A stretch of DNA of 64,000 nucleotides. Source: Geminicoccaceae bacterium. GTDB taxonomy: Bacteria > Pseudomonadota > Alphaproteobacteria > Geminicoccales > Geminicoccaceae. The translations under genes were made by a program, and so were the position numbers. Positions 1,211 through 22,109 of the stretch are shown piece after piece. Each line of letters opens with the position of its first letter. The first letter of the stretch is position 1. The stretch lies in NCBI GenBank assembly GCA_020638465.1, contig JACKIM010000003.1, positions 34,675-98,674 of the forward strand, read 5' to 3'. The notes beneath the pieces are model-generated. The model saw only the letters and a list, made by a program, of their open reading frames with translations, was not told the DNA's origin and searched no databases.

Positions 1211-2152
1211 ATGGCTCACATCAAACCCAAAGGCTCGTTCGTCGCCCTTGTGACGCCGATGAACCACGATGGCAGCATCGACTTCGAGGGCTTTCGCACA
1301 TTGCTCGACTGGCATGCCGAGAACGGTACCGAAGCGGTATTGATCATGGGTTCGACCGGCGAGGTCTCCATGCTTTCCGCCGAGGAACGCAGGGAGATCA
1401 TCAGCCGCACGGTGAAGATGAAGCCCGGCAACATGCTCATGTATTACGGCATCACCGGCAACAATACCGCCACGACCATCGAATATGCCCGTTTCGCCAA
1501 GGCGGAGGGTGCCGATGGCGCCATCATGGCCGCTCCCGCCTATATCTGCGCCGACAATGCCGCGATCACCGACTATGCGCTCGAAGTGCTCGACAGCACC
1601 GATCTGGCCATGGGTTTCTACAACAATCCGCCACGGGTGAAGACCGACCTGCACTGGAACGACCTGCTGAAGCTGGCCGATCATCCCAACATGGTCGTCC
1701 TCAAGGAATCGACGACCCGCGTCGGTCAGGTCGCCCAGGTCTGTGCAGCCAGGCCCGACATGTCGATCATGTGCTGCTGTTCCCCCAATCTGGGGCTGGT
1801 GATCCCGACCATGGCACTGGGTGGTCACGGTACCGCCAACATGACGGGCAACATCATTCCCCGGGAAATGGCCGTCATTTCCAAGCCCTGGGCCGACGGT
1901 ACGGATGCCTTTGCCTGCCGTGAGGCGTGGCTGGAGAACCTGCCCATGCTGCACTTCGCCTATTCCACCATCAATCCGGTGTCGATCAAGACCCTCATGC
2001 GGGCTGTGGGTCTGCCTGCCGGCCCGCTGCGCAAGCCGCTTCAGCCCGCTTCGGCGCCCGTGCTGCAAGCCGGCCTCGACGCTTTCGAGACACTGGGCCT
2101 CGGTAAAAAATATGGCCTGCGGATGGACCGGAACGCGATTGCTGCCGAGTGA
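1211..2152 (+). CDS. Dihydrodipicolinate synthase/N-acetylneuraminate lyase family (class I aldolase) protein
   Basis: 313 aa. DapA-family motifs LIMGSTGE and candidate Schiff-base lysine in VVLKESTT. SD-like caggagac lies before the ATG. Confidence 0.85.
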   Translation: MAHIKPKGSFVALVTPMNHDGSIDFEGFRTLLDWHAENGTEAVLIMGSTGEVSMLSAEERREIISRTVKMKPGNMLMYYGITGNNTATTIEYARFAKAEGADGAIMAAPAYICADNAAITDYALEVLDSTDLAMGFYNNPPRVKTDLHWNDLLKLADHPNMVVLKESTTRVGQVAQVCAARPDMSIMCCCSPNLGLVIPTMALGGHGTANMTGNIIPREMAVISKPWADGTDAFACREAWLENLPMLHFAYSTINPVSIKTLMRAVGLPAGPLRKPLQPASAPVLQAGLDAFETLGLGKKYGLRMDRNAIAAE

Positions 2153-2156
2153 TCAC

Positions 2157-4400
2157 ATGAGTATCCAGCGCCGGCTGAGCCTGTGTCACTGGGGTGCCTT
2201 CACCGCGAGCGTGGGAAATGGCAGGCTCGTCGAGGCTGTCCCCATGGACGGTAGCGGCGCCGATCCCGTGATGATCGGGCGTTGGCCGGAACTGGTCCAT
2301 TCGCACCTGCGCATCGACCGCCCGCATGTGCGCCGCCGCTTTCTCGAACAAGGCGCGGCAGCGGGCGGCGAGGGACGCGGCAGCGACGAGATGGTGCCTG
2401 TCGACTGGGACACGGCGCTCGATCTGGTGGCGAGCGAAATTGCGCGCATCCATGAAACGTTCGGTCCACAGGCAATCTTTGGTGGTTCCTATGGCTGGTC
2501 GAGTGCAGGCCGGTTCCACCATGCCCGCACGCAAGTCCGGCGTTTTCTTGCCTCTGCCGGAGGGTTCACCGATCAGGTCGGCAATTACTCGTGGGGGGCC
2601 GCGCACGCCTTGCTGCCGCATGTCCTGGGATCGGCGGAAGCCGTTTCGGGGGCGGCCACCGGGTGGGAGAGTATCGCCGGTTCTACTGACACACTGGTGG
2701 CCTTTGGCGGGCTCAATCCCAAGAACTGGCGGGTGACGTCGGGCGGCGCCGGGTTCCACCGCATGCCCGAAGCCGTGGTTGAAGCCGCCCGGAACGGGGT
2801 GAAATTCATCATCGTCTCACCCCATGCCGACGATGTTCCCGACGGCATCGACGCGCTGACGATCCGGCCACGGCCCAACAGCGATACCGCGATCATGCTG
2901 GCACTCGCCCGCGAGGCCCTTGTCAGCGGGCGGGCCGACCTGCCCTTTCTCCAGCACTACACCGTGGGCCATGAGCAACTGGCCGACTATCTGCATGGCC
3001 GGATGGACGGAGTAGACAAAACACTGGAGTGGGCGGCAACCATTGCCGATGTTCCACATTCCACGCTTCGGGAATTGTGGCATCGAATCCGGAATGGCCG
3101 GGTGATGCTCACCGCGACGTGGTCCCTGCAACGTTCCCAATATGGCGAACAGCCCTATTGGGCACTCATCGCGCTTGCCGCCATGCTCGGCCAGATCGGC
3201 TTGCCGGGCGGCGGCTTCTGCTTCGGTTACGGTTCGCTCAACGCCGTGGGTGCGCGGGCGCGCAAGGGCTTCGTGCCTGCCATGCCCGCCATTTCCAACC
3301 CCGCAAACAGCGCCATTCCGGCAGCATCCATCCTCGACTGCCTTGCCCATCCGGGGAAGATCATCGCCTTCAACGGCAACACCCTCACCTTCCCTGACAT
3401 CCGCCTCGTCTACTGGGCGGGCGGCAATCCCTTCCACCATGCCCAGGACCTGTTCGCCCTCGATGCCGCGTGGCGTCGGCCGCAGACCGTGATCGTCAAC
3501 GAGCCATGGTGGACACCCGCCGCCCGCCGCGCCGACATCGTCCTGCCGGCCACCACATCGGCGGAACGCAACGATATCGGCGGCACTTCGCGTGACCCCC
3601 ATGTCTTCGCCATGCCCCGTCTCGTGCCGCCGCAGGGCGAGGCACGAGACGACTTCACCATTTTCGCGGCTCTGGCCGAGCGCCTCGGTTGCCACCAGAC
3701 GTTCACGGATGGACTCGACGAGCAGGGCTGGCTCACCCGGTTGTGGGTGGCGAACGAGGCCCGTGCGACCACCGCCGGCATCGACATTCCAAGTCTTGGC
3801 GAGCTCTTCGCCAAGGGGTGCTGGCGAGTACCGCCGCCGGACGGACCCGAAGTGATGCTGGCGGGATTCCGCGCCGATCCGGACGCTGTGCCACTTGCAA
3901 CGCCATCCGGCCGCATCGAGCTGTTCAGCGCCACGATCGCCGGCTTCGGCCTCGATGACGTACCGGGACATCCGGCGTGGATTGAGCCAGTCGAATGGCT
4001 GGGCCGGGCGGCAGCCGATGAACTGCATCTGGTGACCAACCAGCCGTCGCGGCAATTGCACAGCCAGTTGTTCCAGACCCGGACCGACAATGGCCCGGCG
4101 CAGGTCGACATCGCGCCGTCCGATGCCGCAGCACGCGGGATCGGCAACGGTGCGCAGGTGCGGCTGTTCAATCGTCGTGGCGCGTGTCTGGCACAGGCGC
4201 ATGTCAATCATGGCCTGCGTCCGGGTGTGCTGGCGATGCCGACGGGCGCATGGTTCGCCCCCGATCCCGCCCGGCCGCATCTCGAACGCAACGGCAATCC
4301 CAACGTGCTCACATCGTCCCGGACGACATCGGGCCTTGGTCAGGGATGCGCTGCCCTGAGCACGCTGGTGCGGATCGAGCCCTGGAATGTGGAAGGATAG
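2157..4400 (+). CDS. Molybdopterin oxidoreductase, cytoplasmic BisC/TorZ-like S-/N-oxide reductase family
   Basis: Track ORF 1905..4400 trimmed to the in-frame ATG at 2157, 5 nt after the upstream stop. N-terminus MSIQRRLSLCHWGAF resembles BisC. No Tat signal and no N-terminal Fe-S Cys cluster seen. About 747 aa. Confidence 0.85.
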   Translation: MSIQRRLSLCHWGAFTASVGNGRLVEAVPMDGSGADPVMIGRWPELVHSHLRIDRPHVRRRFLEQGAAAGGEGRGSDEMVPVDWDTALDLVASEIARIHETFGPQAIFGGSYGWSSAGRFHHARTQVRRFLASAGGFTDQVGNYSWGAAHALLPHVLGSAEAVSGAATGWESIAGSTDTLVAFGGLNPKNWRVTSGGAGFHRMPEAVVEAARNGVKFIIVSPHADDVPDGIDALTIRPRPNSDTAIMLALAREALVSGRADLPFLQHYTVGHEQLADYLHGRMDGVDKTLEWAATIADVPHSTLRELWHRIRNGRVMLTATWSLQRSQYGEQPYWALIALAAMLGQIGLPGGGFCFGYGSLNAVGARARKGFVPAMPAISNPANSAIPAASILDCLAHPGKIIAFNGNTLTFPDIRLVYWAGGNPFHHAQDLFALDAAWRRPQTVIVNEPWWTPAARRADIVLPATTSAERNDIGGTSRDPHVFAMPRLVPPQGEARDDFTIFAALAERLGCHQTFTDGLDEQGWLTRLWVANEARATTAGIDIPSLGELFAKGCWRVPPPDGPEVMLAGFRADPDAVPLATPSGRIELFSATIAGFGLDDVPGHPAWIEPVEWLGRAAADELHLVTNQPSRQLHSQLFQTRTDNGPAQVDIAPSDAAARGIGNGAQVRLFNRRGACLAQAHVNHGLRPGVLAMPTGAWFAPDPARPHLERNGNPNVLTSSRTTSGLGQGCAALSTLVRIEPWNVEG

Positions 4401-4406
4401 AACGCA

Positions 4407-5186
4407 ATGGATATGGGGATTGCCGGCAGGCGGGCCTTGTTGACGGGAGCAAGCAGGGGCATGGGCCTCGCCTGCGCGACGGCACTCGCCGGCGAAGGTG
4501 TCGAAGTGACGATCGTTGCCCGCAACGAGGAGACCCTGTGCCGTGCTGCCCGGCACATCGAGGTCGCGACGGGCACGCGGGTGGCCTTCGTCGCCGCCGA
4601 CATCACCACCGACGAGGGTCGTCGCAAGGCCCTTGGCGCCTGCCCGCAACCGGACATCCTACTCAACAATGCGGGAGGTTTCCCGCCCGGCGATTTTCGC
4701 GACTGGGACAGAAACACCTGGATCGCCGCCATCGACCTCATGATGCTGCCTCCCATCCTCATGATCCGCGAGGTCTTTGACGGAATGATGGAGCGCGGCT
4801 TCGGCCGCATCGTCAACATCGCCTCGCGCAGCGTGAAGATCGCGCAGCCGGAAATGGGGCTTTCCAACGGCGCACGTTCGGGCCTCGTGGGGTTCATGGC
4901 GGGTATTGCACGGGCCGGGACATATCGCGGCGTAACGGTCAACACGCTCCTGCCGGGCATCTTCGATACCGATGCACAGCGCGATCACGTGGCGGCACTT
5001 GCCGCCGAAACGGGGCGCGGTTTCGACGAGATCTGGAACGAGCGCGCTGCTGGCAATCCCGCCCGCCGCTATGGCCGTGCCGAAGAAATTGCCGCCTACT
5101 TCACCTTCCTCTGCTCGGTTCACGCGGGTTTCATCACCGGCCAGAACCTCATGATCGACGGCGGCAGCTATCCCGGAACCTATTGA
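4407..5186 (+). CDS. SDR family oxidoreductase
   Basis: 259 aa. Rossmann motif [12 protein letters not shown] motif, typical SDR length. Confidence 0.85.
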
Positions 5187-6330: not shown

Positions 6331-6672
6331 TCAGCCTGCATCATGTTCCGGGTCGAGGTCGATTTCGAGGTCGAGCAGGGGCGGGTATTGCTGCGCACCG
6401 AAGATGTCGGCGTCACCGGGGCTGCCTGACGGGCGCTCGCGGCGAATCGTGAACTTGATCGCCATGGCCGGATCGAAGGTGACGAAATCCGTGATCTGCT
6501 CCGGTGGCACGCCGAACAGCCGCTCGACCCTTTCGCGCGTCAGGCTGCCGCTGTCGCGCACCTTCTCGTAGATATCGCGGTCGGTGAAGATGATATCGAA
6601 GGTGATCTTGTCGACGCCCGCATTCTTGCTGCGCACGGTCTTTGCGAGATCCTTGAGATAGTGCCTGGTCAT
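6331..6672 (-). CDS. DUF4387 domain protein (small partner of AtuA-family proteins)
   Basis: 113 aa, located 2 nt downstream of the AtuA-like gene. Sequence pattern KNAGVDKITFDIIF...FDP recognised as DUF4387 from memory. Confidence 0.7.
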   Translation of the reverse strand: MTRHYLKDLAKTVRSKNAGVDKITFDIIFTDRDIYEKVRDSGSLTRERVERLFGVPPEQITDFVTFDPAMAIKFTIRRERPSGSPGDADIFGAQQYPPLLDLEIDLDPEHDAG

Positions 6673-6674: not shown

Positions 6675-8033
6675 TCAGCCGCCGATCGTGGTGATGTGGG
6701 TCGGGAAGAGTTCCATGGGATCATCTACGGCGATGGTGTGGTTCAGGGTCCAGCGATAGCCGGCGCTGGCCCGCACCACCTCGTCGAGCGGGAACGCGAC
6801 GGACCCCGCCGTGCCCTTCACGTCGGGCAGCCGGGCATAGAACATCTGCCGGGTTCCGGTCATCGTCACCTCTTCGGCCATCTCGGATGTCGGAGCGACA
6901 CCCTGGACGAGTATGCACAGCTCGTGGGCCGGCGTCCTGACCGGCTCCATCGTCCCCATCACGCCGTTGCGGCCATAGACCGTGTAATGCAGCTCGTAGC
7001 CCGCGGTGCCGAAGCGCTCCTCGACCTGGTGTCTGGCCCAGCCGATCACCTCGTCGACATGGGCGATCGTGTAGGGATCGCGGATCCCCACCAGTCCGAT
7101 ATAGCGCTCGCCCACCTTGCCCGATCCCTCCAGCTTGACCCGCACCCGGTCGGCATGATGGAACACCTGTCCGGTCACGCGGGTCGTCTTTTCGGAGACT
7201 TGTTCGTAATGGCACCGGCTCATGTCCAGCACGCCGCCGGCCACATGTTCGAGGAACGGGTTCGAGCGCTCATACATCGCGTGACCGGCCACCGAAGCTA
7301 TCGTGCAGCGTTGGTCCGGGTGCATCGCGGTGATGTGAACGCCATCGGACCGCACCTCGCCCATGACGGTTTCCTTGGCTCCATAGGGCTCCGCACAGAA
7401 GGAGGCACATTCCAGCGCCTTGCCCAGGAAGTAGGCATCCGCCTCCGCAGCTCCCCTGAAGATTGCCGGTGCGGCAAAGACCACGCAATCCGACGACCGC
7501 CCGCCAATGATGACATCGGCTCCCTTGCGCAGCAGATCGAGATAGGGATGGACACCTGCCACCGCGACGATGCGATCGGTCGCGTCCAGTTCCGCTTCGC
7601 TCAGCGCATCGCGCCCGTCCAGTCCCTCCACAGGCTCCTGCGAGCGGATGGCAGCACGGACCCTCTCCCTGTCGACCCCGCTGTAGAAATGGCCGAGTCT
7701 GAAGGGGGCAAGACCATGCTTGCGCGCGAGATCGCGAATGATATCGCAATACATGTCGACACGGCTGTCGGTGCCGGTATCGCCGGCGGAGCCGATGATC
7801 ATCGGTACCCCGATCCTCCTGGACGCCAGCAGCATGTCCTCAAGATCGCGGGTCTGCCACGCCTTCGGACTGGCGCAGGTGTCCGAACCGAGTGGTACCG
7901 GACCCACGTCATCGCTGCCGCTATCGGCGGCAATGAAATCGGGGCCCGCGTCGACACCGATATGGAAGCTTTCAGGCTTGAGCGGCGCGAAGCCCAGATG
8001 GCCATTGGGGCAGATGATCTTGACAAGGCTCAT
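6675..8033 (-). CDS. AtuA-family protein (DUF1446, acyclic terpene utilisation AtuA-like)
   Basis: 452 aa. N-terminus MSLVKIICPNGHLGFAP...IAADSGSDDVGP and length typical of DUF1446. Paired with DUF4387, as is usual for this family. Confidence 0.75.
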   Translation of the reverse strand: MSLVKIICPNGHLGFAPLKPESFHIGVDAGPDFIAADSGSDDVGPVPLGSDTCASPKAWQTRDLEDMLLASRRIGVPMIIGSAGDTGTDSRVDMYCDIIRDLARKHGLAPFRLGHFYSGVDRERVRAAIRSQEPVEGLDGRDALSEAELDATDRIVAVAGVHPYLDLLRKGADVIIGGRSSDCVVFAAPAIFRGAAEADAYFLGKALECASFCAEPYGAKETVMGEVRSDGVHITAMHPDQRCTIASVAGHAMYERSNPFLEHVAGGVLDMSRCHYEQVSEKTTRVTGQVFHHADRVRVKLEGSGKVGERYIGLVGIRDPYTIAHVDEVIGWARHQVEERFGTAGYELHYTVYGRNGVMGTMEPVRTPAHELCILVQGVAPTSEMAEEVTMTGTRQMFYARLPDVKGTAGSVAFPLDEVVRASAGYRWTLNHTIAVDDPMELFPTHITTIGG

Positions 8034-8063: not shown

Positions 8064-9038
8064 TCATGGGTCGAGCAATCGCAGCTTCCGCATCTGGTGG
8101 CGGAGGGCATGACGCGAAAGGCCGAGGCGTCTGGCCGCTTCTCCCGACCGACCGTTGGCGGCCTTGAGGGCATCGGCGATCAGGCGGCGCTGGAAGACCT
8201 CGGTGCGGACATGGAAATCGCCATGAGACGAGCCGTCGTCGATGCCTCCCCGCGGGCACGAACCCTCGACTTCGCGCATGATCCGCGGCGGGATATGACT
8301 GGCGAGGATGCAATCATCTTCTTCGAGCGCAATGATGCGTTCGATGAGATTCTCGAGTTCGCGAACATTCCCCGGCCACCGATGATATCGGAAAACCTCG
8401 ACGACCGACGGTTCCATGCCCTTGATGGTGCGGCCATAGATCCGCGAAAAGCGTTCGATGAAATGTTCCGCCAGCAGCAGCACGTCGTCGCCACGCTCAC
8501 GCAGCGGTGGCAGGTTGATGCTGATGACTTGCAGGCGGTAGTAGAGATCCTCGCGGAAATGTCCTGCCTTGACCTCGCCGAACAGGATCCGGTTGGTGGC
8601 CGCGACAAAGCGGACATCGGTGCCGATGGACTGCTCCGCGCCGATGCGGCGGAAGCGGGCCGTATCGAGCAGCGTCAACAGTTTGGCCTGGAGAACGCTG
8701 TCGAGTTCCCGGACTTCATCGAGAAACAGCGTTCCCTTGTCGGCAACCTCGATCAGACCGACACGTCGTCCGACGGCCCCGGTGAATGCGCCGCGCTCGT
8801 GCCCGAAGAGTTCCGATTCGAGCAGGCTCGCCGGAATGGCGGCACAATTGATGTCGACGAACTCGAAGGGTGCGCGCGAGGACAATTCGTGCAGGGCCCG
8901 GGCGACCAGCCCCTTGCCGGTTCCGGTCTCGCCGTAGATGAGAACGCAGCGGGCCGGGCTCGTGGCGATCTTGCGCACCAGCGCCCGCATGGCCTCGATC
9001 TCGCAGCTGTTGCCATGAATCCGGTCGAGTGCGCTCAA
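8064..9038 (-). CDS. Sigma-54-dependent transcriptional activator (bEBP) lacking any N-terminal sensory/receiver domain
   Basis: 324 aa. Walker A GETGTGKG, intact GAFTGA, Walker B LFLDEV, C-terminal Fis-type HTH AARRLGLSRHALRHQMRKL. The AAA+ core begins about 5 residues after the TTG start at 9038, which overlaps the upstream stop (TTGA). Confidence 0.9.
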   Translation of the reverse strand: MSALDRIHGNSCEIEAMRALVRKIATSPARCVLIYGETGTGKGLVARALHELSSRAPFEFVDINCAAIPASLLESELFGHERGAFTGAVGRRVGLIEVADKGTLFLDEVRELDSVLQAKLLTLLDTARFRRIGAEQSIGTDVRFVAATNRILFGEVKAGHFREDLYYRLQVISINLPPLRERGDDVLLLAEHFIERFSRIYGRTIKGMEPSVVEVFRYHRWPGNVRELENLIERIIALEEDDCILASHIPPRIMREVEGSCPRGGIDDGSSHGDFHVRTEVFQRRLIADALKAANGRSGEAARRLGLSRHALRHQMRKLRLLDP

Positions 9039-10090
9039 CGGCCGGCCCCGTCGCCATTCGCCAGTGTTGCAAAGGCGAACCTCTGCAATGGCTGCATGCA
9101 GGGCGGGCCGAAAGCGACCGAAAGCGCCGGTGCGCCGGTCTCAAGGCAGGCCAGGGACAATGTGCGCGCGTCATCGTCCTCGCCATGGCGGCACAGGGCC
9201 GGCCGGCCGTCTCCGCCGTGGCTCGCCATCAATGCCTGCGGATTGCACCCCATGCCGCTTTCCAGCGCCGCCCGCAGACGCTCCAGGCGCTCCTGCGAGC
9301 TTGCTTGCATGCAGTCGCCGGACCGGACAAGGTTCTCGTCGGCGAGCTGGACGAAGTGGTTCGTCCGGGCGACACTCCTGTCACCCCATTCGACCGCGAT
9401 ACCGTTGCAGGCGAGCTCGACGGCGGCCGTGACTCCCTGCCGGTCGGCAAGGACCAGGCAACCGCCACCGACATGACGAAGCTCCCGCAACATCGCCACG
9501 GCTGCCTTCACATCGGCGCAAACGGAGAGAATCCGGGTCATGACGAAATAGCGGAGCCAGCCCGGTGCATGATTGCGCACGGATGTCTGGGTATCGGCCA
9601 CCGCGAGCCCGGCATCGTTGATCCCGCTTGAATACGCACCCGGCGCGCCGAGCGAACCCAGCGACAGCCAGGCATGCGGCATGTCGGGTCCCTCGTGCAG
9701 GGCCACCATCTGCAGGGGCGCATGATCGCCACGGAAATCTCGGTTCTTGGCGATCCGGGCTCCGCCCTGCGGATGCGGCATGGCCAGAACCGAGCAGCCA
9801 TCCCCCTGATATGCCCCGAGATCGCCGAGTATCCCCGCATGAAGATAGATGAAAAGATCCAGCGGATCGACCGCATAGCCCTGGGCAATGCCGTCGATCT
9901 CCGCCATGTCGCCGGCACAATGAGCCTGTGCGAAGGCATGCTGCCTGTCGATGAAATCCCGATCGATCCGGATCGTCTCCAGCCGGGCCGCCAGTGCGTC
10001 ACGCACCGCAGCAGCCGCGTCCGGTCGCAGGGCGGCCTGTCCACGGCCCCGGACATGGGCGTCGCCGCGAAGATGGAGAAAGTTCCTCAT
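9035..10090 (-). CDS. Peptidase C45 family (acyl-CoA:6-APA acyltransferase-like Ntn hydrolase)
   Basis: 351 aa. Gly-Cys self-cleavage-type motif QGDGCSVLAM followed by IAKNRDF. Start overlaps the upstream ATPase stop (ATGA). Confidence 0.7.
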   Translation of the reverse strand: MRNFLHLRGDAHVRGRGQAALRPDAAAAVRDALAARLETIRIDRDFIDRQHAFAQAHCAGDMAEIDGIAQGYAVDPLDLFIYLHAGILGDLGAYQGDGCSVLAMPHPQGGARIAKNRDFRGDHAPLQMVALHEGPDMPHAWLSLGSLGAPGAYSSGINDAGLAVADTQTSVRNHAPGWLRYFVMTRILSVCADVKAAVAMLRELRHVGGGCLVLADRQGVTAAVELACNGIAVEWGDRSVARTNHFVQLADENLVRSGDCMQASSQERLERLRAALESGMGCNPQALMASHGGDGRPALCRHGEDDDARTLSLACLETGAPALSVAFGPPCMQPLQRFAFATLANGDGAGR

Positions 10091-11079
10091 GCGCGACCTT
10101 CATTGCCATGCAGATGGCAACGTACGCTGACATCGCCTTCCAGCATGACCGCGTCGGGCGATTTTTGACGACAGACGGGCATGGCATGCGGGCAGCGGGT
10201 GTGAAACCGGCAGCCGGCGGGCGGGTCGATCGGCGAGGGCGGATCGCCGTCGAGCCTGATGCGCGCCGACGATCCGGCATGGGTCTTCGGTGCCGCGGAA
10301 ATGAGTGCCTGCGTATAGGGATGGCTGGGCTGGGCGATGACCCGTCTGGCGGGACCGGTCTCGACGATCTCGCCCAGATACATGACCGCCACACGATCGC
10401 TGACATAGCCGATGACGGCGATGTCATGACTGACGAACAGGTAGGTCAGCGACAATTCCCGGCGCAGTTCGGCCAGCAGTTCGATCACCTGGGCCTGAAT
10501 GGAGACATCCAGCGCCGACACCGGCTCGTCGCAGACGACAAGGTCCGGTTCCAGCACGAGGGCACGCGCAATGCCGATGCGCTGACGCTGTCCACCGGAG
10601 AACTGATGGGGGAAACGCTGGAGCATCTCGTGCGACAGGCCGACCCGACCCGCGATCGCGACAACCTTGCGCCGGATGACGTCAGCATCGCGCTCGCCAT
10701 GCAGCTTCAAGGGACGGGCGATGATGGAAAAGACGTTCTGCCGCGGGTTCAGCGAGGCATAGGGATCCTGGAAAATGATCTGCATGCGCCGTCGCAACGC
10801 CTTGAGCTGCGACGCATCGGCCCCGGTGACGTCCTCACCGTCGAGCTCCACCGTTCCACCCGTGGGCTCCAGCAGCCGCAGCAGGGTCCGCCCCAGCGTC
10901 GACTTCCCGCACCCGCTCTCGCCGATCAGGCCCAGCGTCTCTCCGCGGGCCATGCTCAGGTCTACGCCATCCACGGCCCGAACCGCATGCCCCGGGCGCC
11001 CGATGAGCCTGCCGAACATGCTGCCACCGATCTCGTAATGCTTGGTCAATCCTCTCACACGCAGAAAGGTCTCGCTCAT
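10087..11079 (-). CDS. Peptide/opine ABC transporter ATP-binding protein (DppF/OppF type)
   Basis: Track ORF 10087..11532 trimmed to [11 protein letters not shown] at 11079 (ATGA overlap with the upstream gene). Walker [10 protein letters not shown], signature FSGGQRQR, C-terminal CRFHTRCP oligopeptide domain. Confidence 0.9.
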   Translation of the reverse strand: MSETFLRVRGLTKHYEIGGSMFGRLIGRPGHAVRAVDGVDLSMARGETLGLIGESGCGKSTLGRTLLRLLEPTGGTVELDGEDVTGADASQLKALRRRMQIIFQDPYASLNPRQNVFSIIARPLKLHGERDADVIRRKVVAIAGRVGLSHEMLQRFPHQFSGGQRQRIGIARALVLEPDLVVCDEPVSALDVSIQAQVIELLAELRRELSLTYLFVSHDIAVIGYVSDRVAVMYLGEIVETGPARRVIAQPSHPYTQALISAAPKTHAGSSARIRLDGDPPSPIDPPAGCRFHTRCPHAMPVCRQKSPDAVMLEGDVSVRCHLHGNEGRA

Positions 11080-12047
11080 GAGGAACTTCCAAGCACGCAG
11101 CGCACCGCCCTGCCCGGCGCCCGATCCTCCAGCATCACCGGCTGCATGCAGCGCCCGTGCGCCTGCATGCAGCGCGGGGCAAAGCGGCATCCGGCAGGCA
11201 GGCGTGCCAGATCGGGCGGCTGTCCCGGAATGGGGGAAATCGCCTTGTCCAGATGATCGAGATCGGGAATCGAGGCCAGCAGGCCGACGGCATAGGGATG
11301 CAGCGGCTGATCGATGAGCTCGCGTGTCGCCGCCCGCTCGACGATCTGCCCTGCATACATCACCATCACCCGGTCGCAATATTCCGCAACAACGCCCAGA
11401 TCGTGGGTAATGATCACCACGGCCATGCCGAGCTCGCGACGCAGCCGGTCGAGCAGTTCCAGCACCTGGGCCTGGATGGTGACATCCAGCGCCGTTGTCG
11501 GTTCGTCGGCGATCAGCAGTTTCGGTTCGCACGCCAGCGCGATGGCGATCATGATCCGCTGGCGCATGCCACCCGAAAACTGGTGCGGATAGTCACGCAA
11601 CCGGGTCTCCGGTGCAGGGATACCCACCAGACGCAGCAGTTCGAGGGAACGCTCGCGCGTCGCGCGCCGGCCGAGGGCCATACCGTGTGCCCCGAGGGTC
11701 TCGGCGATCTGCTCGCCGATCGTGAAGGCCGGGTTGAGCGAGGTCAGGGCATCCTGAAGGGTCATCGCCATCTGCCGCCCGCGAATCCGCCGCCAGGCCC
11801 GGTCGTCGAGACCGACCAGTTCGCGACCTTCCAGCCGCACGCTGCCGCGGTCGATCCGGCCGGGCGGACGTACCAGTCCCATGACGCTCTGGAATGTCAC
11901 GCTCTTGCCGGAACCGCTTTCGCCGACCACGCCGACGCATTCGCCGGCATTCACCGCGAAATCGACACCGTCCACGGCGACAAGGTCGCCATGCCGGGTG
12001 GCAAAGACCGTTCGCAGGCCGCGGACTTCGAGCAGGGCATCAGTCAT
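11076..12047 (-). CDS. Peptide/opine ABC transporter ATP-binding protein (DppD/OppD type)
   Basis: Trimmed to [11 protein letters not shown] at 12047. Walker A GESGSGKS, signature FSGGMRQR, C-terminal CRFAPRC. Confidence 0.9.
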
Positions 12048-12933
12048 GGAGCTTGGGATCGAAGGCGTCGCGCAATCCCTGGCTGGCGACATTGATGGCA
12101 AGGACGAGAATGAGGATGGCCAGTCCGGGGAACGTGCTGACCCACCACGCCTGGAGCATGAACTGCCGCCCGTCGGCAACCATCGACCCCCAGCTCGCCA
12201 TGGGCGGCTGCACGCCAAGGCCCAGGAACGAAAGACTGGCTTCGAGGATGATGACATGGGCCATGCGGATGGTTGCCACCACCAGCACCGGCGAAAGGAT
12301 GTTGGGGAGGATCTCGTACCGCATGACCTGCAGGCTGGAGGCGCCGGCCGCCCGCGCCGCCTCGACATATTCGAGTTCGCGCACCGACAGCGTTTCCCCG
12401 CGCACCACCCGGCACGGGATGACCCATTCCTTGTAGGCGAGCGCAAGGATGATGTTCTGCAACCCCGGCCCCATCATGGCCATGAGCCCTATGGCAAAGA
12501 TCAGATAGGGGAAACCGAGGAGGATATCGACGAGCCGCGAGATCAGGATGTCCGGCCAGCCGCGCAGATAGCCGGCCGCCAGACCGGCGACGATGCCGAT
12601 CGTCGTTGCCACGAGGATGACCGCCGCACCGATGAAGATGGAAATTCGCGCGCCGTAGATGATCCTCGAAAGGATATCCCTGCCAAGCGCATCACATCCG
12701 AGCGGGAAGGCCATCTCGCCTCCTGCCACCCAGAACGGAGGCTGGAGGCGGCGGAACAGGTCCGTCTCGTAGGGATCGTGCGGCGCCAGCCACGGTGCGA
12801 GGACGGCCGCCAGCAACACCAGGAGAACCACCAGCGTCGCCGCAACGGCCAGACGGTTTTCGGCAAAGATGGCCAGCGACCGCCGCAGCGGGGTTTCGGT
12901 GACGGGCAGGGCCGCGTCGGCGACCGCGCTCAT
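12040..12933 (-). CDS. ABC transporter permease (DppC/OppC type)
   Basis: Start taken at ATG 12933 (ATGA overlap with the upstream permease). Polytopic, with EAA-type loop region. Confidence 0.9.
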   Translation of the reverse strand: MSAVADAALPVTETPLRRSLAIFAENRLAVAATLVVLLVLLAAVLAPWLAPHDPYETDLFRRLQPPFWVAGGEMAFPLGCDALGRDILSRIIYGARISIFIGAAVILVATTIGIVAGLAAGYLRGWPDILISRLVDILLGFPYLIFAIGLMAMMGPGLQNIILALAYKEWVIPCRVVRGETLSVRELEYVEAARAAGASSLQVMRYEILPNILSPVLVVATIRMAHVIILEASLSFLGLGVQPPMASWGSMVADGRQFMLQAWWVSTFPGLAILILVLAINVASQGLRDAFDPKLHD

Positions 12934-13937
12934 AGCCCGACCCTCGGATTGAGCCACGTGTAGAGGATGTCGGCGACCAGATTGAGCATCACATAGGTTA
13001 CCGCGTAGAGCAGGACCGCCGCCTGAACCAGCGGATAGTTGCGCACGAAGATGCTCTCCACCACCAGCCTCCCCAGGCCGGGCCAGCCGAACACCGTTTC
13101 CACGACCATGTTGCCGCCCAGCAGCGAACCCGTCTCGATGGCAGCCACCGTGACGGTGGGAATGAGCGCATTCTTGAGGGCCAGCCTGAACAGCACGCGG
13201 CGCTGTGACAAGCCGCGCGCACGGGCGAAGGTGATGTAGTCCTGTCGCAGGACTTCGAGCATCGAGGCCCGGGTGACGCGGGTCAGGATGGCGGCCATGG
13301 GCAGGGCCAGCGTGACCGCGGGCAGGATGATATGCGAGAGCGCCTCACCGAACAGGGCGAAGTTGCCGGTGATCAGGCTGTCGACCAGCAACAGCCCGGT
13401 AATATCGGGAAGTTCGCTGGAAAAGCCCACCCGGCCTGATACCGGAAGCCAGTGCAGGTTCACCGAGAACAGCATCAGCAGCAGGATGCCGAACCAGAAT
13501 CCGGGAAGGGAGACACCCAGCAACGATGAAACTGTCGCCAGGCGATCAATGAACCGGTTGCGGTAGAGGGCTGCCAGCACACCCAGCGGGATCGATATGG
13601 CCAGCGCCAGGATGAGACTGGCCAGGGTCAGTTCGATGGTGGCCGGCAGCCTTTCGGCGATGACATCGGCCACCGGCCGCCGATGGAAGAAGCTCTGGCC
13701 GAAATCGCCCGTTGCGACATTGCCGATGAAAACGAAAAAGCGTTCATGGGCCGGACGGTCGAGACCCATGTCGTGACGGATGCCCGCCTCCTCCTCCGCC
13801 GTGACCTGCTGGTCGCCGAGCATGATGTCCACCGGATCGCCCGGCGTGAGCGCCATCATCACGAAGACGATGAAACTCACGCCCAGCAATACCGGCACGA
13901 GCTGCACCAGACGTTCGGCGAGCCTCGCAGGTCTCAC
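12930..13937 (-). CDS. ABC transporter permease (DppB/OppB type)
   Basis: 335 aa polytopic protein with typical C-terminus DILYTWLNPRV. Confidence 0.9.
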   Translation of the reverse strand: MRPARLAERLVQLVPVLLGVSFIVFVMMALTPGDPVDIMLGDQQVTAEEEAGIRHDMGLDRPAHERFFVFIGNVATGDFGQSFFHRRPVADVIAERLPATIELTLASLILALAISIPLGVLAALYRNRFIDRLATVSSLLGVSLPGFWFGILLLMLFSVNLHWLPVSGRVGFSSELPDITGLLLVDSLITGNFALFGEALSHIILPAVTLALPMAAILTRVTRASMLEVLRQDYITFARARGLSQRRVLFRLALKNALIPTVTVAAIETGSLLGGNMVVETVFGWPGLGRLVVESIFVRNYPLVQAAVLLYAVTYVMLNLVADILYTWLNPRVGL

Positions 13938-13948: not shown

Positions 13949-15490
13949 TCAGCCGTCGACACAGGCATCATGCAGGTTGATGCGGCTGTCCGCGCTGGGC
14001 TGCCATCCGCTAACCCTCTTCGAGACGCCGTAGACATCCTGCGGAACCCACAGGAAGACCATCGGCACGTCCTTTTGCACCAGATCCTGCGCCTGAATGT
14101 AGAGCTGCATGCGTTTGTCGGCATCGGTTTCCGTCGAGGCGGCCGTCAACAGCCCGTCCAGTTCGGGATTGGCATATCCGCTCGAATTGCCGCGCGCATC
14201 CGTCATCAATACCGGGTTGAAGATATCGTAGGGATCGAGCGTACCGTTCCCCCACGAGGTGAACCACATGTCGCCTTCGCGCACCTTGGCACCCTCGGTC
14301 CGCCACTTGTCGACCAGCTGCGACCCCTCGCCCACCTGCACGGTGGTGCGGATGCCGGCCTTGGTGAGCAGCGATGCGACGGCCTCGGCAATGTCCTTGA
14401 AGGCGCCCTCCACGTCCATGGTCACGTCGATACCGTCACCCAGCCCCGCCTCTTCGAGCAGCGAAGCGGTCTTGTCCGGGTCGTAGGGATGTCCCGCCAG
14501 CGCGGGATCGAAGGCGAAGGCATCGGGGCTGAGGATGCCCTCGATCGGCACCGCCAGGCCGTTGAGGATCTTGTCGATCACCAGTTGCTTGTCGATGGCA
14601 TGGGCCAGTGCCTCGCGCACCTTCACATTGTCGAAGGGCGGCTTTTCCATGTTGAGGGCGATGTAGAAACTGCGCGTTCCGTTGACGGTCATCACCTTCG
14701 CATTGTCACTGTTCTCGACCGTGGCAATGTCCGACGGCGGCAGCTCGTTGATGATGTCGACATCGCCGGCCAGGAGTGCTGCCACGCGCGAGGAGCTTTC
14801 GGGAATGATCTGGAAGATCGCCCGCTCGACGCAGGCCGGACCCACGGGCGGGATCTCGGTGGAACCGCCGTAATAGTCGTCGTAACGGTCCATGATGACC
14901 GCCTCGCCCTTGCGCCACTCCGCGAGCCTGAACGGCCCGGTGCCGTTTTCCCTTTCCGCGAGCCCGCCCGGACCGGCAGCCTCGGTGAAACTTTTGGAGA
15001 CGACCTCCTGAAACGGCAGCATGGCCGGCAGGATCGGCCACGGCTCGGACAGCCTGAAGCGGACGGTCGAATCGTCGACTGCCTCGACATCGACCAGCGG
15101 GCCGAGCAGGCCCTTGCGCGGGCTCGTCTGGCCATCCATCGCATTCTCGTCGATCAGCCGATGGAAGGTGAAGGCGACATCACCGGCCGTGAGCGGAGAA
15201 CCGTCGTGGAAGGTCACGCCGGAGCGCAGCTTCGCCTCCCAGGTGGTGGGATCGACCTGCGTGAAGCTTTCGGCGAGCTGCGGCACGACCTGCATGTTCG
15301 CATCGCGGGTCACGACGCCGTCATACATGTTGCGCAGGATGGTCTCGGTCTCGCGCTTGCGATGGTTGGCGGGGTCGAGCGTCAGCGCATCGAGGGTAAA
15401 GCCAACCTTGATCTCGCTGGCATGAAGGTCGCCGGCCGCCGCACCGGCCATGACGGCCAGCGCCAGCAAGGATGTCGAAAGCCTTCTCAT
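13949..15490 (-). CDS. ABC transporter substrate-binding protein, family 5 (peptide/nickel/opine)
   Basis: 513 aa. Signal peptide MRRLSTSLLALAVMAGAAAG. First gene of the minus-strand operon. Confidence 0.9.
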   Translation of the reverse strand: MRRLSTSLLALAVMAGAAAGDLHASEIKVGFTLDALTLDPANHRKRETETILRNMYDGVVTRDANMQVVPQLAESFTQVDPTTWEAKLRSGVTFHDGSPLTAGDVAFTFHRLIDENAMDGQTSPRKGLLGPLVDVEAVDDSTVRFRLSEPWPILPAMLPFQEVVSKSFTEAAGPGGLAERENGTGPFRLAEWRKGEAVIMDRYDDYYGGSTEIPPVGPACVERAIFQIIPESSSRVAALLAGDVDIINELPPSDIATVENSDNAKVMTVNGTRSFYIALNMEKPPFDNVKVREALAHAIDKQLVIDKILNGLAVPIEGILSPDAFAFDPALAGHPYDPDKTASLLEEAGLGDGIDVTMDVEGAFKDIAEAVASLLTKAGIRTTVQVGEGSQLVDKWRTEGAKVREGDMWFTSWGNGTLDPYDIFNPVLMTDARGNSSGYANPELDGLLTAASTETDADKRMQLYIQAQDLVQKDVPMVFLWVPQDVYGVSKRVSGWQPSADSRINLHDACVDG

Positions 15491-15828: not shown

Positions 15829-15892
15829 CCCTGCGATGAGGCAAGCCACGGCTTGCCAGGCCCTGCGATGAGACAAGCCACGGCTTGCCAAG
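15829..15892. repeat. Two tandem 32-bp repeats, each containing the palindrome GGCAAGCC-AC-GGCTTGCC (candidate enhancer/operator)
   Basis: CCCTGCGATGAGGCAAGCCACGGCTTGCCAGG followed directly by CCCTGCGATGAGACAAGCCACGGCTTGCCAAG, with 2 mismatches. It lies 186-249 bp upstream of the minus-strand -24 element and about 47 bp upstream of the GntR start. Confidence 0.8.
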
Positions 15893-15938
15893 TCCGGTCG
15901 ATGGCGTTATGGCGGTACCAATTCAGGAATGGTCCCGT

Positions 15939-16676
15939 ATGGGAGGATCGCCGCAGTTCATGTCGATGGTCGGCCATAACCGCAACAATTCGAGCATTGC
16001 CCTGGCAGCGCTGCGCCAATGGCTGGCTCAGGATGGCCGTGTACCTGGAGACCGGCTTCCCCCCGAGCGGGAAATGGCCGAGCAATTCGAGGTCGGCAGG
16101 CGTTCCCTGCGTCGCGCGCTGGATGTCCTCGAAGCCGAAGGCCAGGTCTGGCGTCATCAGGGCAAGGGGACCTTCATCGGCGTGATGCCCTATCCCGCCG
16201 AACCGCCCGTCGCCGAGATCGCCGCTGCGACGGGGCCCGCCGACATCATGACGGCCCGCCTCGCCATCGAACCGGAGCTGGCCGCCCTCTGCTGCCGGTC
16301 CGCCGAGCCGGCGGATATCGTCCGCATGCGCTATCTCGCCAAGCGCATCGATGCCACCCGCGATCCCGATGCGGCCGAACTGTGGGACAGCGCATTGCAT
16401 CGCCTGATTGCCTGGGCGGCCGGCAATCCCCTGCTGCTGGCCAGCTTTGCCCTGGTGGACGAGATCCGGCAGCAGGACGAGTGGCGCGACCTCCGCGAAC
16501 AGGCCCGCAACGCCGAGAGCCGGGCCCTTTCCGGCCGCCAGCACCGGGAAATCATCGACGCCATCGCCATGCGCGATGCCGATGCCGCACGCCGCGCCAT
16601 GCGCGCTCACCTGAGCAGCCTTGCCGAAAGGCTGGACGACATCATCGGGGCACCCTTCGTGGACACGTTGCGATGA
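15939..16676 (+). CDS. GntR/FadR family transcriptional regulator
   Basis: wHTH LPPEREMAEQFEVGRRSLRRALDVLEAEG plus a FadR-type helical C-terminal domain. Start is uncertain: in-frame candidates at 15885, 15939 and 15960. Confidence 0.85.
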   Translation: MGGSPQFMSMVGHNRNNSSIALAALRQWLAQDGRVPGDRLPPEREMAEQFEVGRRSLRRALDVLEAEGQVWRHQGKGTFIGVMPYPAEPPVAEIAAATGPADIMTARLAIEPELAALCCRSAEPADIVRMRYLAKRIDATRDPDAAELWDSALHRLIAWAAGNPLLLASFALVDEIRQQDEWRDLREQARNAESRALSGRQHREIIDAIAMRDADAARRAMRAHLSSLAERLDDIIGAPFVDTLR

Positions 16677-17653
16677 CCGCCGAAGCCCTGCTCACCGTCG
16701 AGAACCTCACCATCGGCTTTCGCGGATTGCGGCAGCCGCTCGTCGATGGCGTCGGTTTCGCGATGGAACGCGGACGCACGCTCTGCCTCGTGGGCGAGTC
16801 CGGCTGCGGCAAGTCGCTCACCGCCCTCGCGCTCATGGGCCTTCTCGCCTCGCCGCCGACGGAAAGGCGCGCCGGCCGGGCCCTGTTCGAGGGCCGCGAC
16901 CTTTTCGACCTCGATCTCGCGGCCTTGCAGGACCTGCGCGGCGGCAGGATCGCGATGATCTTCCAGGAGCCGATGACCTCGCTCAATCCGGCCATCCGGA
17001 TCGGCGAGCAGATCGCCGAGAGCATCCGCAGGCATCAGGGACTGGACCGGGCGGCCGCGAGAAGGCGCGCGCTCGACCGGCTGGAACAGGTCCGCATTCC
17101 CGCCGCCGCCCGACGCCTTGACGACTATCCGCACCAGCTTTCGGGCGGCATGCGCCAGAGGGTGATGATCGCCATGGCGCTCGCCAACGATCCGGCCCTG
17201 CTGATCGCCGACGAACCGACCACCGCCCTCGATGTCACCATCCAGGCGCAGATCCTCGATCTGATCCGCAACCTCCAGTCCGAAACGGGAGCGGCTCTCC
17301 TGCTCATCACCCACGATCTCGGCGTCGTCGCCCAGATGGCCGACGAGGTGGCCGTGATGTATGCCGGCAGGATCGTCGAATCCGGCCCGGCCAGGAACAT
17401 CTTCGACGACCCGCAGCACCCCTACACGCTGGGGCTCATGGGCTCGCTGCCGACGCTGGACGCCCGGCGCGGGCCGTTGCTCACGATCCCCGGCATCGTG
17501 CCCTCGCCCGAACGGCTCCCCGACGGCTGCCGCTTTGCCGACCGCTGCCCGTTCCGGGGGCCGCCTTGCGTCGCGGTCCCGGCGCTCGCCCCACTCGGCG
17601 ACGGCCATGCCGCCGCCTGTCACTACGTACCGCTTGAGGAAAAGGTCGCGTGA
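16673..17653 (+). CDS. Peptide/opine ABC transporter ATP-binding protein (DppD type)
   Basis: Track ORF trimmed to [12 protein letters not shown] at 16673 (ATGA overlap with the GntR stop). Walker A GESGCGKS, signature LSGGMRQR. Confidence 0.9.
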
Positions 17654-18738
17654 TGGCCGCCGTGATCGAGGCCCATGGATTGCAGCGCCACTTCGGCGGC
17701 AGATCGTCGTGGTTCGGCCGCTCGTCCCCCGTCCGGGCCGTCGACGGCATCGACCTTGCCATCGAGGAAGGCGAGACCTTCGCCATCGTCGGCGAATCGG
17801 GTTGCGGCAAGTCCACGCTGGCACGGGTCCTGGCCGGACTCATGCCCGCCAGCGCCGGCTCGGTCAGCTTTCGCGGACGGGATCTGACCACCCTCGATCC
17901 GGCCGAACGCAAGCGGTTGCGCCGCGACATGCAGTTCGTGTTCCAGGACCCGTTCTCCTCGCTCAATCCACGCATGACCGCTGGTGCCCTGATCGGGGAG
18001 CCGCTCGCCGCGCATGACATCGGCGATGCCACCGGACGACGACGCAAGGTCGCCGAACTCATGGCCCGCGTCGGCCTGCGGCCCGAACATGCCAGCCGGT
18101 ATCCGCACGAATTCTCGGGCGGGCAGCGGCAGCGCATCGGCATTGCCCGCGCGCTGGCCACCGGCCCCTCCGTCATCGTCGGCGACGAGCCGGTATCCGC
18201 GCTCGACGTGTCGATCCAGGCGCAGGTGATCAACCTGCTCGAAGAACTGAAGACCGAGTTCGGCCTGACGCTGGTCGTCATTTCCCATGACCTGACCGTC
18301 ATTCATCACATGGCCGACAGGGTCGCGGTGATGTATCTGGGACAGATCGTCGAGCTGGCGCCAGTGCGCGAACTCTTCGCCAGTCCGCGGCATCCCTATA
18401 CCGCAGCCCTGCTCGCCGCCATTCCGATGGATGGCCGGATGCCCGCGCAACCGCTCGAAGGCGATCCGCCCAATCCGCTCTCGCCACCTTCCGGCTGCCG
18501 GTTCCACACGCGCTGCCCCCACGCGGTCGCCGCATGTTCGGCCGACGCACCGGCTCTTGAAGCGACGGAGGATGGCGGGGGGAACCGTGCCGTCGCCTGC
18601 CATCGTGCCCGCGAGCTGTCGCTGCGCGGTGCCGATGGGGGCGGGAGGCCGCCCGCGACTGCCGCCGCGAGGCGTTTCGAACTCTATCGCCGGGCACGCG
18701 AAGTGCCGGTCATGACAGGAAGGGAACATCGCTCATGA
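17650..18738 (+). CDS. Peptide/opine ABC transporter ATP-binding protein (DppF type)
   Basis: Walker [10 protein letters not shown], signature [16 protein letters not shown] domain, about 40-aa Arg/Ala-rich C-terminal tail. Confidence 0.9.
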   Translation: MMAAVIEAHGLQRHFGGRSSWFGRSSPVRAVDGIDLAIEEGETFAIVGESGCGKSTLARVLAGLMPASAGSVSFRGRDLTTLDPAERKRLRRDMQFVFQDPFSSLNPRMTAGALIGEPLAAHDIGDATGRRRKVAELMARVGLRPEHASRYPHEFSGGQRQRIGIARALATGPSVIVGDEPVSALDVSIQAQVINLLEELKTEFGLTLVVISHDLTVIHHMADRVAVMYLGQIVELAPVRELFASPRHPYTAALLAAIPMDGRMPAQPLEGDPPNPLSPPSGCRFHTRCPHAVAACSADAPALEATEDGGGNRAVACHRARELSLRGADGGGRPPATAAARRFELYRRAREVPVMTGREHRS

Positions 18739-20246: not shown

Positions 20247-20262
20247 TGCGACGGAATGACGG

Positions 20263-20290
20263 GGCCCGGCGGGCGATACCGCGCCGGGCC
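20263..20290 (+). other. Intercistronic GC-rich stem-loop after the SBP gene
   Basis: GGCCCGGCG - 10-nt loop - CGCCGGGCC, a perfect 9-bp stem, between the SBP stop (20246) and the permease start (20299). Confidence 0.5.
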
Positions 20291-20298
20291 GCCATGCC

Positions 20299-21243: not shown

Positions 21244-22109
21244 ACGCCGCCGCCACCGCCACCGACCAGGCCGAACCGCGCCAGCCCAATCGTGTCTGGC
21301 GCAAGTTCAAGCACAACCCCTCGGCCATCCTCGGTGCCCTGCTCGTCCTGTTCTTCGTCGCCGTGGCCGTCCTCGCCCCGGTCCTGCCCGTGGCGGACCC
21401 GACGGCGACCGACTGGGGCGCGGTGCGCAAGGCGCCGGATGCCGTTCACCTCCTCGGGACGGACGAGATCGGCCGCGACATCCTCTCGCGCATGATCTGG
21501 GGGGCCCGCGCGTCATTGCTCGCCGGTGTCGTTTCGGTGGCGATCGCCATGATCCTGGGCGTGCCGTTCGGCGTGCTGGCGGGCTATCTGCGCGGCTGGA
21601 CCGACATGGCCATAAGCCGTGTCACCGAGGCCCTGCTGGCCGCCCCCTTCCTCATCCTTGCCATTGCCCTTGCCGCGTTCCTCGGTCCCTCGCTGATGAA
21701 TGCCATGCTCGCCATCGGTCTCTCGGCCATGCCGATCTTCATCCGCATCGCCCGCGGCCAGACCATGTCGGTGATGACCGAGGACTATGTCGAGAGCGCC
21801 CATGCCATCGGCCTGGGCCACGGCGCCATCGTCGCCCGCTACATCCTGCCGAACATCGTCCCGCCCCTGCTGGTCCAGGCCACGCTCACGATTGCCACGG
21901 CCATCATCGCCGAGGCTTCCCTCTCCTTTCTCGGTCTCGGACAGCAGCCGCCGGCACCCTCGTGGGGCTCCATGCTCAACACGGCGAAGAACTTCCTCGA
22001 CCAGGCGCCGTGGATGGCGCTCTGGCCCGGTCTCGCCATCTTTCTCGTCGTCCTCGGCTTCAATCTCCTTGGCGACGGGCTCCGCGACGCCCTCGACCCG
22101 CGCGAATAG
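21240..22109 (+). CDS. ABC transporter permease (DppC type)
   Basis: Track ORF 20256..22109 trimmed to MNAAATATDQ at 21240 (ATGA overlap). Polytopic. Confidence 0.9.
   Translation: MNAAATATDQAEPRQPNRVWRKFKHNPSAILGALLVLFFVAVAVLAPVLPVADPTATDWGAVRKAPDAVHLLGTDEIGRDILSRMIWGARASLLAGVVSVAIAMILGVPFGVLAGYLRGWTDMAISRVTEALLAAPFLILAIALAAFLGPSLMNAMLAIGLSAMPIFIRIARGQTMSVMTEDYVESAHAIGLGHGAIVARYILPNIVPPLLVQATLTIATAIIAEASLSFLGLGQQPPAPSWGSMLNTAKNFLDQAPWMALWPGLAIFLVVLGFNLLGDGLRDALDPRE

Follow-up and report, generated by a model that had tools for sequence, protein, structure and literature searches.

The activator gene and its product

The DNA analyzed here, called the window throughout, is a stretch of 64,000 nucleotides from a Geminicoccaceae bacterium (contig JACKIM010000003.1, positions 34,675 to 98,674). 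On its minus strand nine tightly packed genes (15490-6331) include, at 8064-9038, the gene of a short sigma-54 activator (bacterial enhancer-binding protein, bEBP) without a sensory domain. Comparison with related loci makes it probable that this 324-residue protein is the dedicated local activator of the sigma-54-dependent uptake and catabolic operon in which it is encoded. The gene and its product have the following features.

8064-9038, minus strand: sensor-less sigma-54 activator, 324 aa (Pfam domains, AlphaFold2 model, family-invariant residues)
Residues 8-174: Sigma54_activat (Pfam, E 2e-61, profile positions 2-167 of 168)
Residues 36-43: Walker A, GETGTGKG (read from sequence)
Residues 83-88 (8775-8792, minus strand): GAFTGA loop, the sigma-54 contact motif, invariant in a 40-member family alignment
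Residues 104-108: Walker B, LFLDE (read from sequence)
Residues 161-169: R-finger region, FREDLYYRL (read from sequence)
Residues 180-256: AAA_lid_14 (Pfam)
Residues 224-230: sensor II, NVRELEN (read from sequence)
Residues 280-319 (8082-8201, minus strand): HTH_8, a C-terminal Fis-type helix-turn-helix (HTH) (Pfam)
8091-8126, minus strand: family-specific HTH recognition region, LGLSRHALRHQM, in which SRHALRHQM is invariant or nearly so in the family

A first-pass annotation had described an activator with an intact GAFTGA loop and a C-terminal HTH, no sensory module, and a TTG start codon that overlaps the stop codon of the preceding gene, and each part of this description was borne out. The Pfam search of the 324 residues gave no domain beyond Sigma54_activat, AAA_lid_14 and HTH_8, and 7 residues precede the AAA+ core (Pfam boundary). 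The AlphaFold2 model, built on the 40-member family alignment, had a mean predicted local distance difference test score (pLDDT) of 87 and a predicted template modelling score (pTM) of 0.71; in it the AAA+ fold is followed by the lid, a linker that is disordered (261-273) and an HTH of three helices (275-318), with no further domain. The open reading frame (ORF) begins with TTG at 9038-9036, and the TGA stop of the preceding gene, which encodes a C45-family hydrolase, lies at 9037-9035, an overlap of 4 nt. In the frame of the activator a stop codon is found 35 codons 5' of the TTG with no ATG, GTG or TTG between them, so no N-terminal extension is possible. The next in-frame ATG (M17) would truncate the conserved core if it served as the start. 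The protein keeps every residue that is invariant in the family alignment. Its AAA+ motifs, GAFTGA loop and HTH, together with a predicted cognate site beside a -24/-12 promoter (see below), identify it as a predicted bEBP, and the lack of an N-terminal regulatory domain places it in the sensor-less class of PspF, HrpR and HrpS.

The operon and its upstream region

The upstream elements and the other eight genes of the operon, in the order of transcription, are listed here.

15758-15744, minus strand: predicted activator binding site (upstream activating sequence, UAS), GCGTCAAGATCACGC, one mismatch to GCGTGAAwwTCACGC, 115 bp 5' of the -24 element
15643-15628, minus strand: sigma-54 promoter P1, TGGCACgcctcTTGCT, 153 nt 5' of the start codon of the solute-binding protein gene
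13949-15490, minus strand: family-5 periplasmic solute-binding protein, first gene (Pfam SBP_bac_5, E 5e-86; no NCBIfam equivalog at cut-off)
12930-13937, minus strand: ABC permease 1 (ORF; orthologues with BPD_transp_1; 67-84% identical across loci)
12040-12957, minus strand: ABC permease 2 (ORF; orthologues with OppC_N/BPD_transp_1)
11076-12047, minus strand: ABC ATPase 1 (start MTDALLEV overlaps the end of permease 2; orthologues with ABC_tran and oligo_HPY)
10087-11079, minus strand: ABC ATPase 2 (start MSETFLRV overlaps the end of ATPase 1 by 4 nt; orthologues with ABC_tran and oligo_HPY)
9035-10090, minus strand: C45-family autoproteolytic acyltransferase/hydrolase (Pfam AAT; NCBIfam C45_proenzyme, 136 bits against a cut-off of 85)
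6675-8033, minus strand: AtuA-family protein, CmlA homologue (Pfam AtuA; starts 30 nt past the activator stop codon)
6331-6672, minus strand: DUF4387 protein, CmlB homologue, last gene (Pfam DUF4387, E 2e-36)

Neighboring genes of the operon either overlap by 4-28 nt, as the AtuA and DUF4387 genes do (4 nt), or are separated by 11-30 nt, and this spacing fits one transcript for all nine. A second sigma-54 promoter before AtuA is absent from the window, where the gap is only 30 nt; in the closest relative (L028) about 30 nt likewise separate activator and AtuA, with no second promoter. Since there is no second promoter before AtuA, all nine genes, the activator included, would depend on the single upstream promoter.

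The first-pass annotation had singled out P1 as the only consensus -24/-12 promoter in the window, and P1 is indeed the sole exact match to TGGCAC-N5-TTGCW (1 observed, 0.02 expected). A site with one mismatch, TGGCACGACTGTTGCG (22816-22801, minus strand), has no family palindrome nearby and sits in a stretch of about 1.26 kb (22110-23375) without a recognizable gene, the ORFs there giving no Pfam match. The family palindrome stands beside the promoter of this operon and beside no other promoter in the window, and the spacer between the two is AT-enriched, with 53% GC vs 64% overall. A second copy of the palindrome with one mismatch, GCGTGAAGATCGCGC (4831-4845, plus strand), falls within a gene for a short-chain dehydrogenase (4407-5186), has no sigma-54 promoter in its vicinity and probably matches by chance.

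Two tandem 32-bp direct repeats (15829-15892; 94% identical), each containing a palindrome GGCAAGCC-N2-GGCTTGCC, lie between the predicted activator site and a divergent GntR-FCD gene. They were considered as an activator site and rejected, being conserved in no related locus and lying about 190-250 bp from the promoter; they are more likely to belong to the divergent GntR gene, perhaps as its operator. That gene heads a second peptide-type ABC operon (15885-22103, plus strand) with two ATPases, a family-5 binding protein and two permeases. L028 likewise carries a second ABC cluster and a GntR-FCD gene, differently arranged.

Promoter and palindrome track the activator gene in related loci

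Related loci were collected from the contigs of family members, from two large PLSDB replicons and from a metagenome scan seeded with the AtuA protein of the window, giving 89 loci with the window included, 86 of them non-redundant. The PLSDB replicons came without annotation, and their loci were annotated by tblastn. The activator gene adjoins the AtuA-DUF4387 pair in 62 of the 89 loci, in these arrangements.

Layout A, 27 loci including the window: ABC transporter, C45, activator, AtuA, DUF4387
Layout B, 24 loci: activator, AtuA, DUF4387, TctC
Layout C, 6 loci: AtuA, DUF4387, TctC, with the activator convergent downstream
Short contigs, 5 loci: activator upstream of AtuA-DUF4387

The conserved core is thus the activator with AtuA and DUF4387, and the C45 gene and the ABC transporter are restricted to layout A; layouts B and C, which include the Betaproteobacterial ones, have no C45. 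The first-pass annotation had named conserved linkage of the activator to C45, AtuA (DUF1446) and DUF4387 as a check, and the linkage stands for the latter two and fails for C45 outside layout A. The remaining 27 loci, mostly short contigs, show no activator. No activator gene was found in L062, L081 and L093, whose flanks are complete, or in several others with much sequence on the upstream side, such as L111, L113 and L115.

Of 22 layout-A loci with orthologous genes, 20 have a promoter equivalent to P1 before the solute-binding protein gene, in most cases with the palindrome about 110 bp upstream. Among 60 activator-linked loci, 50 have a -24/-12 promoter in the 130 bp before AtuA (background 1.8%), usually 45-82 nt before the AtuA start codon, and 43 have the palindrome with at most 2 mismatches (background 3.5%). 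The 15-bp consensus GCGTGAAwwTCACGC, with at most one mismatch, was counted 41 times in the regulatory zones (36 kb) vs 7 times in the other 887 kb, which is an enrichment of about 140-fold. Measured to the -24 element, its spacing has a sharp peak at 107-111 bp, and a second site falls at 87-90 bp. The consensus of integration host factor (IHF) is found between palindrome and promoter in 14 of 56 intervals as an exact match (background 0.17%) and in 31 of 56 within one mismatch (background 1.4%). The arrangement is the classical one of enhancer, IHF site and -24/-12 promoter.

As a negative control we used 27 unrelated activator loci (L001-L027), which came from a contig scan with the activator protein, encode generic activators of 40-47% identity and are unfit for orthology; none contained an exact copy of the palindrome. 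Neither promoter nor palindrome was found in any of the three full-flank loci that lack the activator gene, and the same enzyme group, at 70-75% identity, occurs without activator gene, sigma-54 promoter or palindrome. Because the palindrome co-occurs with the activator gene, the activator is the obvious candidate to bind it. The earlier proposal that the activator most likely acts on its own operon finds good support in these comparisons, as promoter and palindrome recur at fixed spacing and follow the activator gene. Upstream of the activator gene itself, layouts B and C show no sigma-54 promoter or palindrome, and varied, unrelated genes precede it.

Six of the 22 layout-A loci carry a complete rpoN (sigma-54) gene directly 5' of the operon on the same strand (L029, at 1964-3286, and L048, L064, L069, L071 and L100). 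In these six the operon promoter and palindrome occupy the gap that separates rpoN from the operon; in the window a GntR gene takes the place of rpoN. The operon-adjacent rpoN may be a dedicated sigma-54 paralogue.

Several loci depart from these layouts. In L037 (1870-4669), which has the AtuA closest to that of the window (84% identical), and in L070 and L092, the AtuA gene comes straight after C45 and no activator gene intervenes, so that even in this clade the activator gene has no fixed position. In L062 (8950-12893) and L093 (3281-8069), both without the activator, the AtuA/DUF4387 pair (about 72% identical) lies beside D-glutamate-cyclase-like genes (PF14336) and binding proteins of the DctP or NMT1 type, and L093 has a divergent GntR/UTRA regulator; these neighbors may hint at the substrate class. 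L081, a metagenome contig, has two AtuA-DUF4387 pairs (720-2396 and 10001-11689; 49% and 73% identical to those of the window) flanking a family-5 ABC transporter.

A broad family of short activators

The closest database entry (P0001), from a Geminicoccaceae metagenome-assembled genome, is 100% identical to the activator after rounding. It differs at residue 270 (8229-8231), in the disordered linker, where the window has Ser (TCG) and the entry Leu. Many homologues of 59-74% identity occur in Rhodobacteraceae, in Acetobacteraceae (Roseomonas, Elioraea) and in Cupriavidus, Rhodoferax and Hydrogenophaga, and others in one Ectothiorhodospiraceae genome and one Gemmatimonadota genome. By sequence, a large family of activators of about 325 residues spans the Alpha-, Beta- and Gammaproteobacteria.

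Members of the family are uniformly short. A length of 317-345 aa is shared by 115 of the top 120 homologues, and for the 5 longer ones no additional Pfam domain is recorded. At 57 orthologous loci the start codon (ATG with few exceptions) lies 5-15 codons 5' of the AAA+ core, and an in-frame stop lies at a median of 31 codons 5' of it. A longer, sensor-bearing reading frame in orthologues, which the first-pass annotation had named as the observation that would speak against a sensor-less protein, was therefore found in none of the 57 loci. Invariant residues outside the canonical ATPase motifs include NCAAIP, QAKLLTLLDT..FRRVG and HLPDRILR.

The family falls under no curated NCBIfam model; AtoC, NifA, NorR, PrpR, PspF and others score far below their cut-offs, and matches to the models of named activators span only the core and the HTH. 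Members are mislabeled in databases as response regulator AtoC, as a "PAS, ATPase and Fis domain" regulator or as a Nif-specific regulator. A literature search on DUF4387, DUF1446 or AtuA with RpoN, or on the activator family, found nothing, and the searchable literature contains no account of the family, its operator or its regulon.

The AtuA/DUF4387 lyase

The AtuA protein of the window matches PDB 9ERQ chain A (CmlA) over its full length (E 1e-69; about 40% identity by a rough reading of the alignment), and the DUF4387 protein matches chain B (CmlB) of the same entry (E 8e-22). Entries 9ERQ and 9EVF were deposited as the citramalate lyase subunits CmlA and CmlB. According to a preprint (bioRxiv 10.64898/2026.01.16.699985), the enzyme of Raoultella planticola cleaves citramalate directly to pyruvate and acetate. 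Across the related loci AtuA is 71-87% identical to that of the window, with one outlier at 53% (L031).

A homologue 85% identical to the solved chain is found in Pseudescherichia vulneris (L117, 4455-14670), in a methylaspartate-pathway cluster of glutamate mutase, methylaspartase, CmlA, CmlB, a transporter and mesaconase, with a LysR regulator and no sigma-54 activator. That the characterized CmlAB clade shares the sigma-54 activator was considered and rejected, since L117, the sole clade relative examined, has a LysR-type regulator. The window contains no mutase, methylaspartase or mesaconase, and some database entries mislabel CmlA as 3-methylaspartate ammonia-lyase. We regard the AtuA/DUF4387 pair of the window as a predicted lyase related to CmlAB. 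By inference, the gene content of layout A points to a peptide-like substrate that is imported, cleaved at an amide bond by C45 and then cut at a C-C bond by the lyase; that of layouts B and C points to a carboxylate taken up directly by way of a binding protein of the TctC type. The substrate of this lyase branch and of the family-5 and TctC binding proteins, or the product formed from it, is probably the inducer.

The proposed circuit

In the circuit that we propose, the C-terminal HTH of the activator would bind the 15-bp palindrome GCGTCAAGATCACGC (15758-15744), and the AAA+ ring, about 115 bp upstream, would contact sigma-54 RNA polymerase at TGGCACgcctcTTGCT by DNA looping over the AT-enriched spacer. 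ATP hydrolysis would then open the promoter, and transcription would proceed through the solute-binding protein, the two permeases, the two ATPases, the C45 hydrolase, the activator and the AtuA/DUF4387 lyase. With the activator inside the transcript and, unlike in most relatives, no second promoter before AtuA in the window, the circuit would feed back positively on itself. Binding to the palindrome, activation, autoregulation and the route of the signal are steps that we infer from the sequence comparisons. Self-activation of the window operon is plausible on this layout, as the first-pass annotation had held; it is not a general property of the family, being special to the layout of the window, and the activator genes of layouts B and C have no sigma-54 promoter of their own.

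Several points weigh against this reading. The palindrome of the window has one mismatch, is present as a single copy and lies 115 bp from the promoter vs the usual 107-111 bp, and the spacer offers no IHF match with fewer than 2 mismatches. The 64-kb window holds no rpoN gene, so the presence of sigma-54 in the host is assumed. That the activator and not another factor binds the palindrome is suggested by their co-occurrence, and every step of the circuit likewise draws on comparative evidence. Self-activation also requires some basal expression of the activator, and no internal promoter was detected; a scan for an internal sigma-70 promoter that could provide it gave none above chance and is uninformative in a genome of 64% GC.

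Least tenable among the alternatives is that the ORF is a decayed remnant (pseudogene) of a longer activator, or serves a distant target while another activator drives the promoter: the TTG start codon and the one-residue difference from the database entry (S270 vs L in P0001) would agree with it, but all invariant family residues are kept, the family is uniformly short and the family palindrome is in the expected place before the operon promoter and beside no other promoter in the window, so that we hold it to be very improbable.

Signal input

Since the activator has no sensing module, its signal must come otherwise, through a partner protein, a ligand on the AAA+ core or the amount of activator or sigma-54. 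The candidate inputs are an antagonist encoded in the operon, an antagonist encoded elsewhere, ligand sensing by the AAA+ domain and pure dosage control. A riboswitch or structured leader was rejected as the input, there being no Rfam match and a leader fold with z = -0.46. That some post-translational control exists can be argued from layouts B and C, in which the activator is transcribed separately and apparently unregulated.

One tentative possibility is an always-active activator without post-translational control, the output being set by the amounts of activator and sigma-54. Basal read-through, positive feedback, sigma-54 supply, IHF or a DNA-acting repressor would then serve as inputs. 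The position of the window activator within its own target transcript, with no second promoter, agrees with such dosage control, and the sigma-54 gene directly upstream of the operon in the six layout-A loci fits control by sigma-54 supply. However, the activator genes of layouts B and C stand behind unrelated genes and share no regulatory element, which means that control would have been reinvented in each lineage, and a plain positive loop, with the activator active at all times, would lock itself on and give no response to substrate.

It is somewhat more doubtful that the activator senses a small molecule directly, for example the substrate or product of the lyase, through its AAA+ core or lid. 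Ligand binding by this part of an activator has precedents: cyclic di-GMP binds to the AAA+ domain of FleQ, and tyrosine to the central domain of TyrR. The many invariant residues outside the ATPase motifs could form a family-specific site, but they may reflect no more than shared ancestry or oligomer contacts.

The first-pass annotation had proposed an intrinsically active activator that an operon-encoded protein (C45, AtuA or DUF4387) holds off in the manner of PspA, with the substrate relieving the block, and we consider this unlikely. Layouts B and C lend it some weight: the activator is transcribed separately and without sigma-54 elements of its own, and an inducible target would need post-translational control. 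No cytoplasmic proteins other than AtuA and DUF4387 are constant companions of the activator, and there are precedents in PspF/PspA and HrpS/HrpV. The operon-encoded enzymes RtcAB, moreover, are reported to control their own activator RtcR (PMC9650030). Against it, C45 is excluded as a conserved partner because it is absent from layouts B and C, and AtuA and DUF4387 together make up a single enzyme as its two subunits (PDB 9ERQ). The same enzyme group occurs at similar identity without activator or sigma-54 elements, in one locus with GntR/UTRA adjacent, so the enzyme does not need the activator and shows no sign of a specialized regulatory form. The adjacency of a regulator and its target accounts for the linkage without any binding; co-location is fully explained by this relationship, and the linkage is then no evidence of binding. 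Control in trans of sensor-less activators, although documented for PspF by PspA and for HrpRS by HrpV, is no law.

A particular form of partner control, in which the AtuA/DUF4387 lyase doubles as the sensor, appears to us more unlikely still. The substrate-free enzyme would block the AAA+ core, or the substrate-loaded enzyme would aid assembly of the activator. If true, the catalytic state of the lyase would set the transcription of its own operon, a partner switch of the PspA or RtcAB kind made from a metabolic enzyme, and this switch would be present across the Alpha-, Beta- and Gammaproteobacteria.

Comparison with known systems

Sensor-less sigma-54 activators are rare, and the well-studied PspF and HrpRS control stress or virulence genes. 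The family described here is large, phylogenetically broad and tied to an enzyme pair of recently assigned function. With its clean predicted operator, its fixed distance between enhancer and promoter and its frequent IHF sites it offers a tractable system for signal reception by sensor-less activators. It also provides a regulon-level handle on the uncharacterized branch of CmlAB (AtuA/DUF4387) with its linked transporters and C45 hydrolase, which could help to find the substrate.

In Pseudomonas putida, the dimethyl-sulfone regulator SfnR is a short sigma-54 activator that is encoded in a metabolic operon and acts as a relay, its expression being set by CysB, and it is a precedent for dosage control; it differs from the window activator in family, target and operator. 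The NtrC/AtoC/ZraR-type activators have the same AAA+ core, lid and HTH_8, share the arrangement of enhancer, IHF site and -24/-12 promoter, and give the best PDB and NCBIfam matches of the window activator. They carry an N-terminal receiver and belong to two-component systems, whereas the window activator has no receiver (AtoC model 313 vs a cut-off of 714).

On the side of the enzymes, CmlAB is encoded by homologous, adjacent AtuA-family and DUF4387 genes in the same order as in the window; its clade relative in Pseudescherichia vulneris, unlike the window locus, lies in a methylaspartate cluster with LysR and no sigma-54 activator. RtcR and RtcAB provide the closest precedent for an enzyme as sensor, in that this activator is reported to be under the control of enzymes from its own target operon, which are required for it (PMC9650030). 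The enzymes bind the N-terminal CARF domain of RtcR, a domain that the window activator lacks.

The nearest likeness is to the sensor-less activators, of which PspF and HrpRS are controlled in trans by PspA and HrpV, respectively (PMC7057263). HrpR and HrpS of Pseudomonas syringae share the absence of a sensory domain and the control in trans of HrpRS by HrpV; they form an obligate hetero-hexamer at one virulence promoter, whereas here each locus has a single activator gene, and no partner resembling HrpV was identified. PspF of Escherichia coli, like the window activator, consists of an AAA+ core and a C-terminal HTH without an N-terminal regulatory domain, in about 325 residues. PspF, which PspA holds off, governs a membrane-stress regulon, whereas the window activator lies in an uptake and lyase operon where no PspA-like gene was seen, and its scores against the PspF models (TIGR02974, 252 vs a cut-off of 444; NF008622, 206 vs a cut-off of 529) separate it from PspF orthologues. 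By its predicted domain content the window activator is thus sensor-less in the manner of PspF and HrpS, and it is an orthologue of neither.

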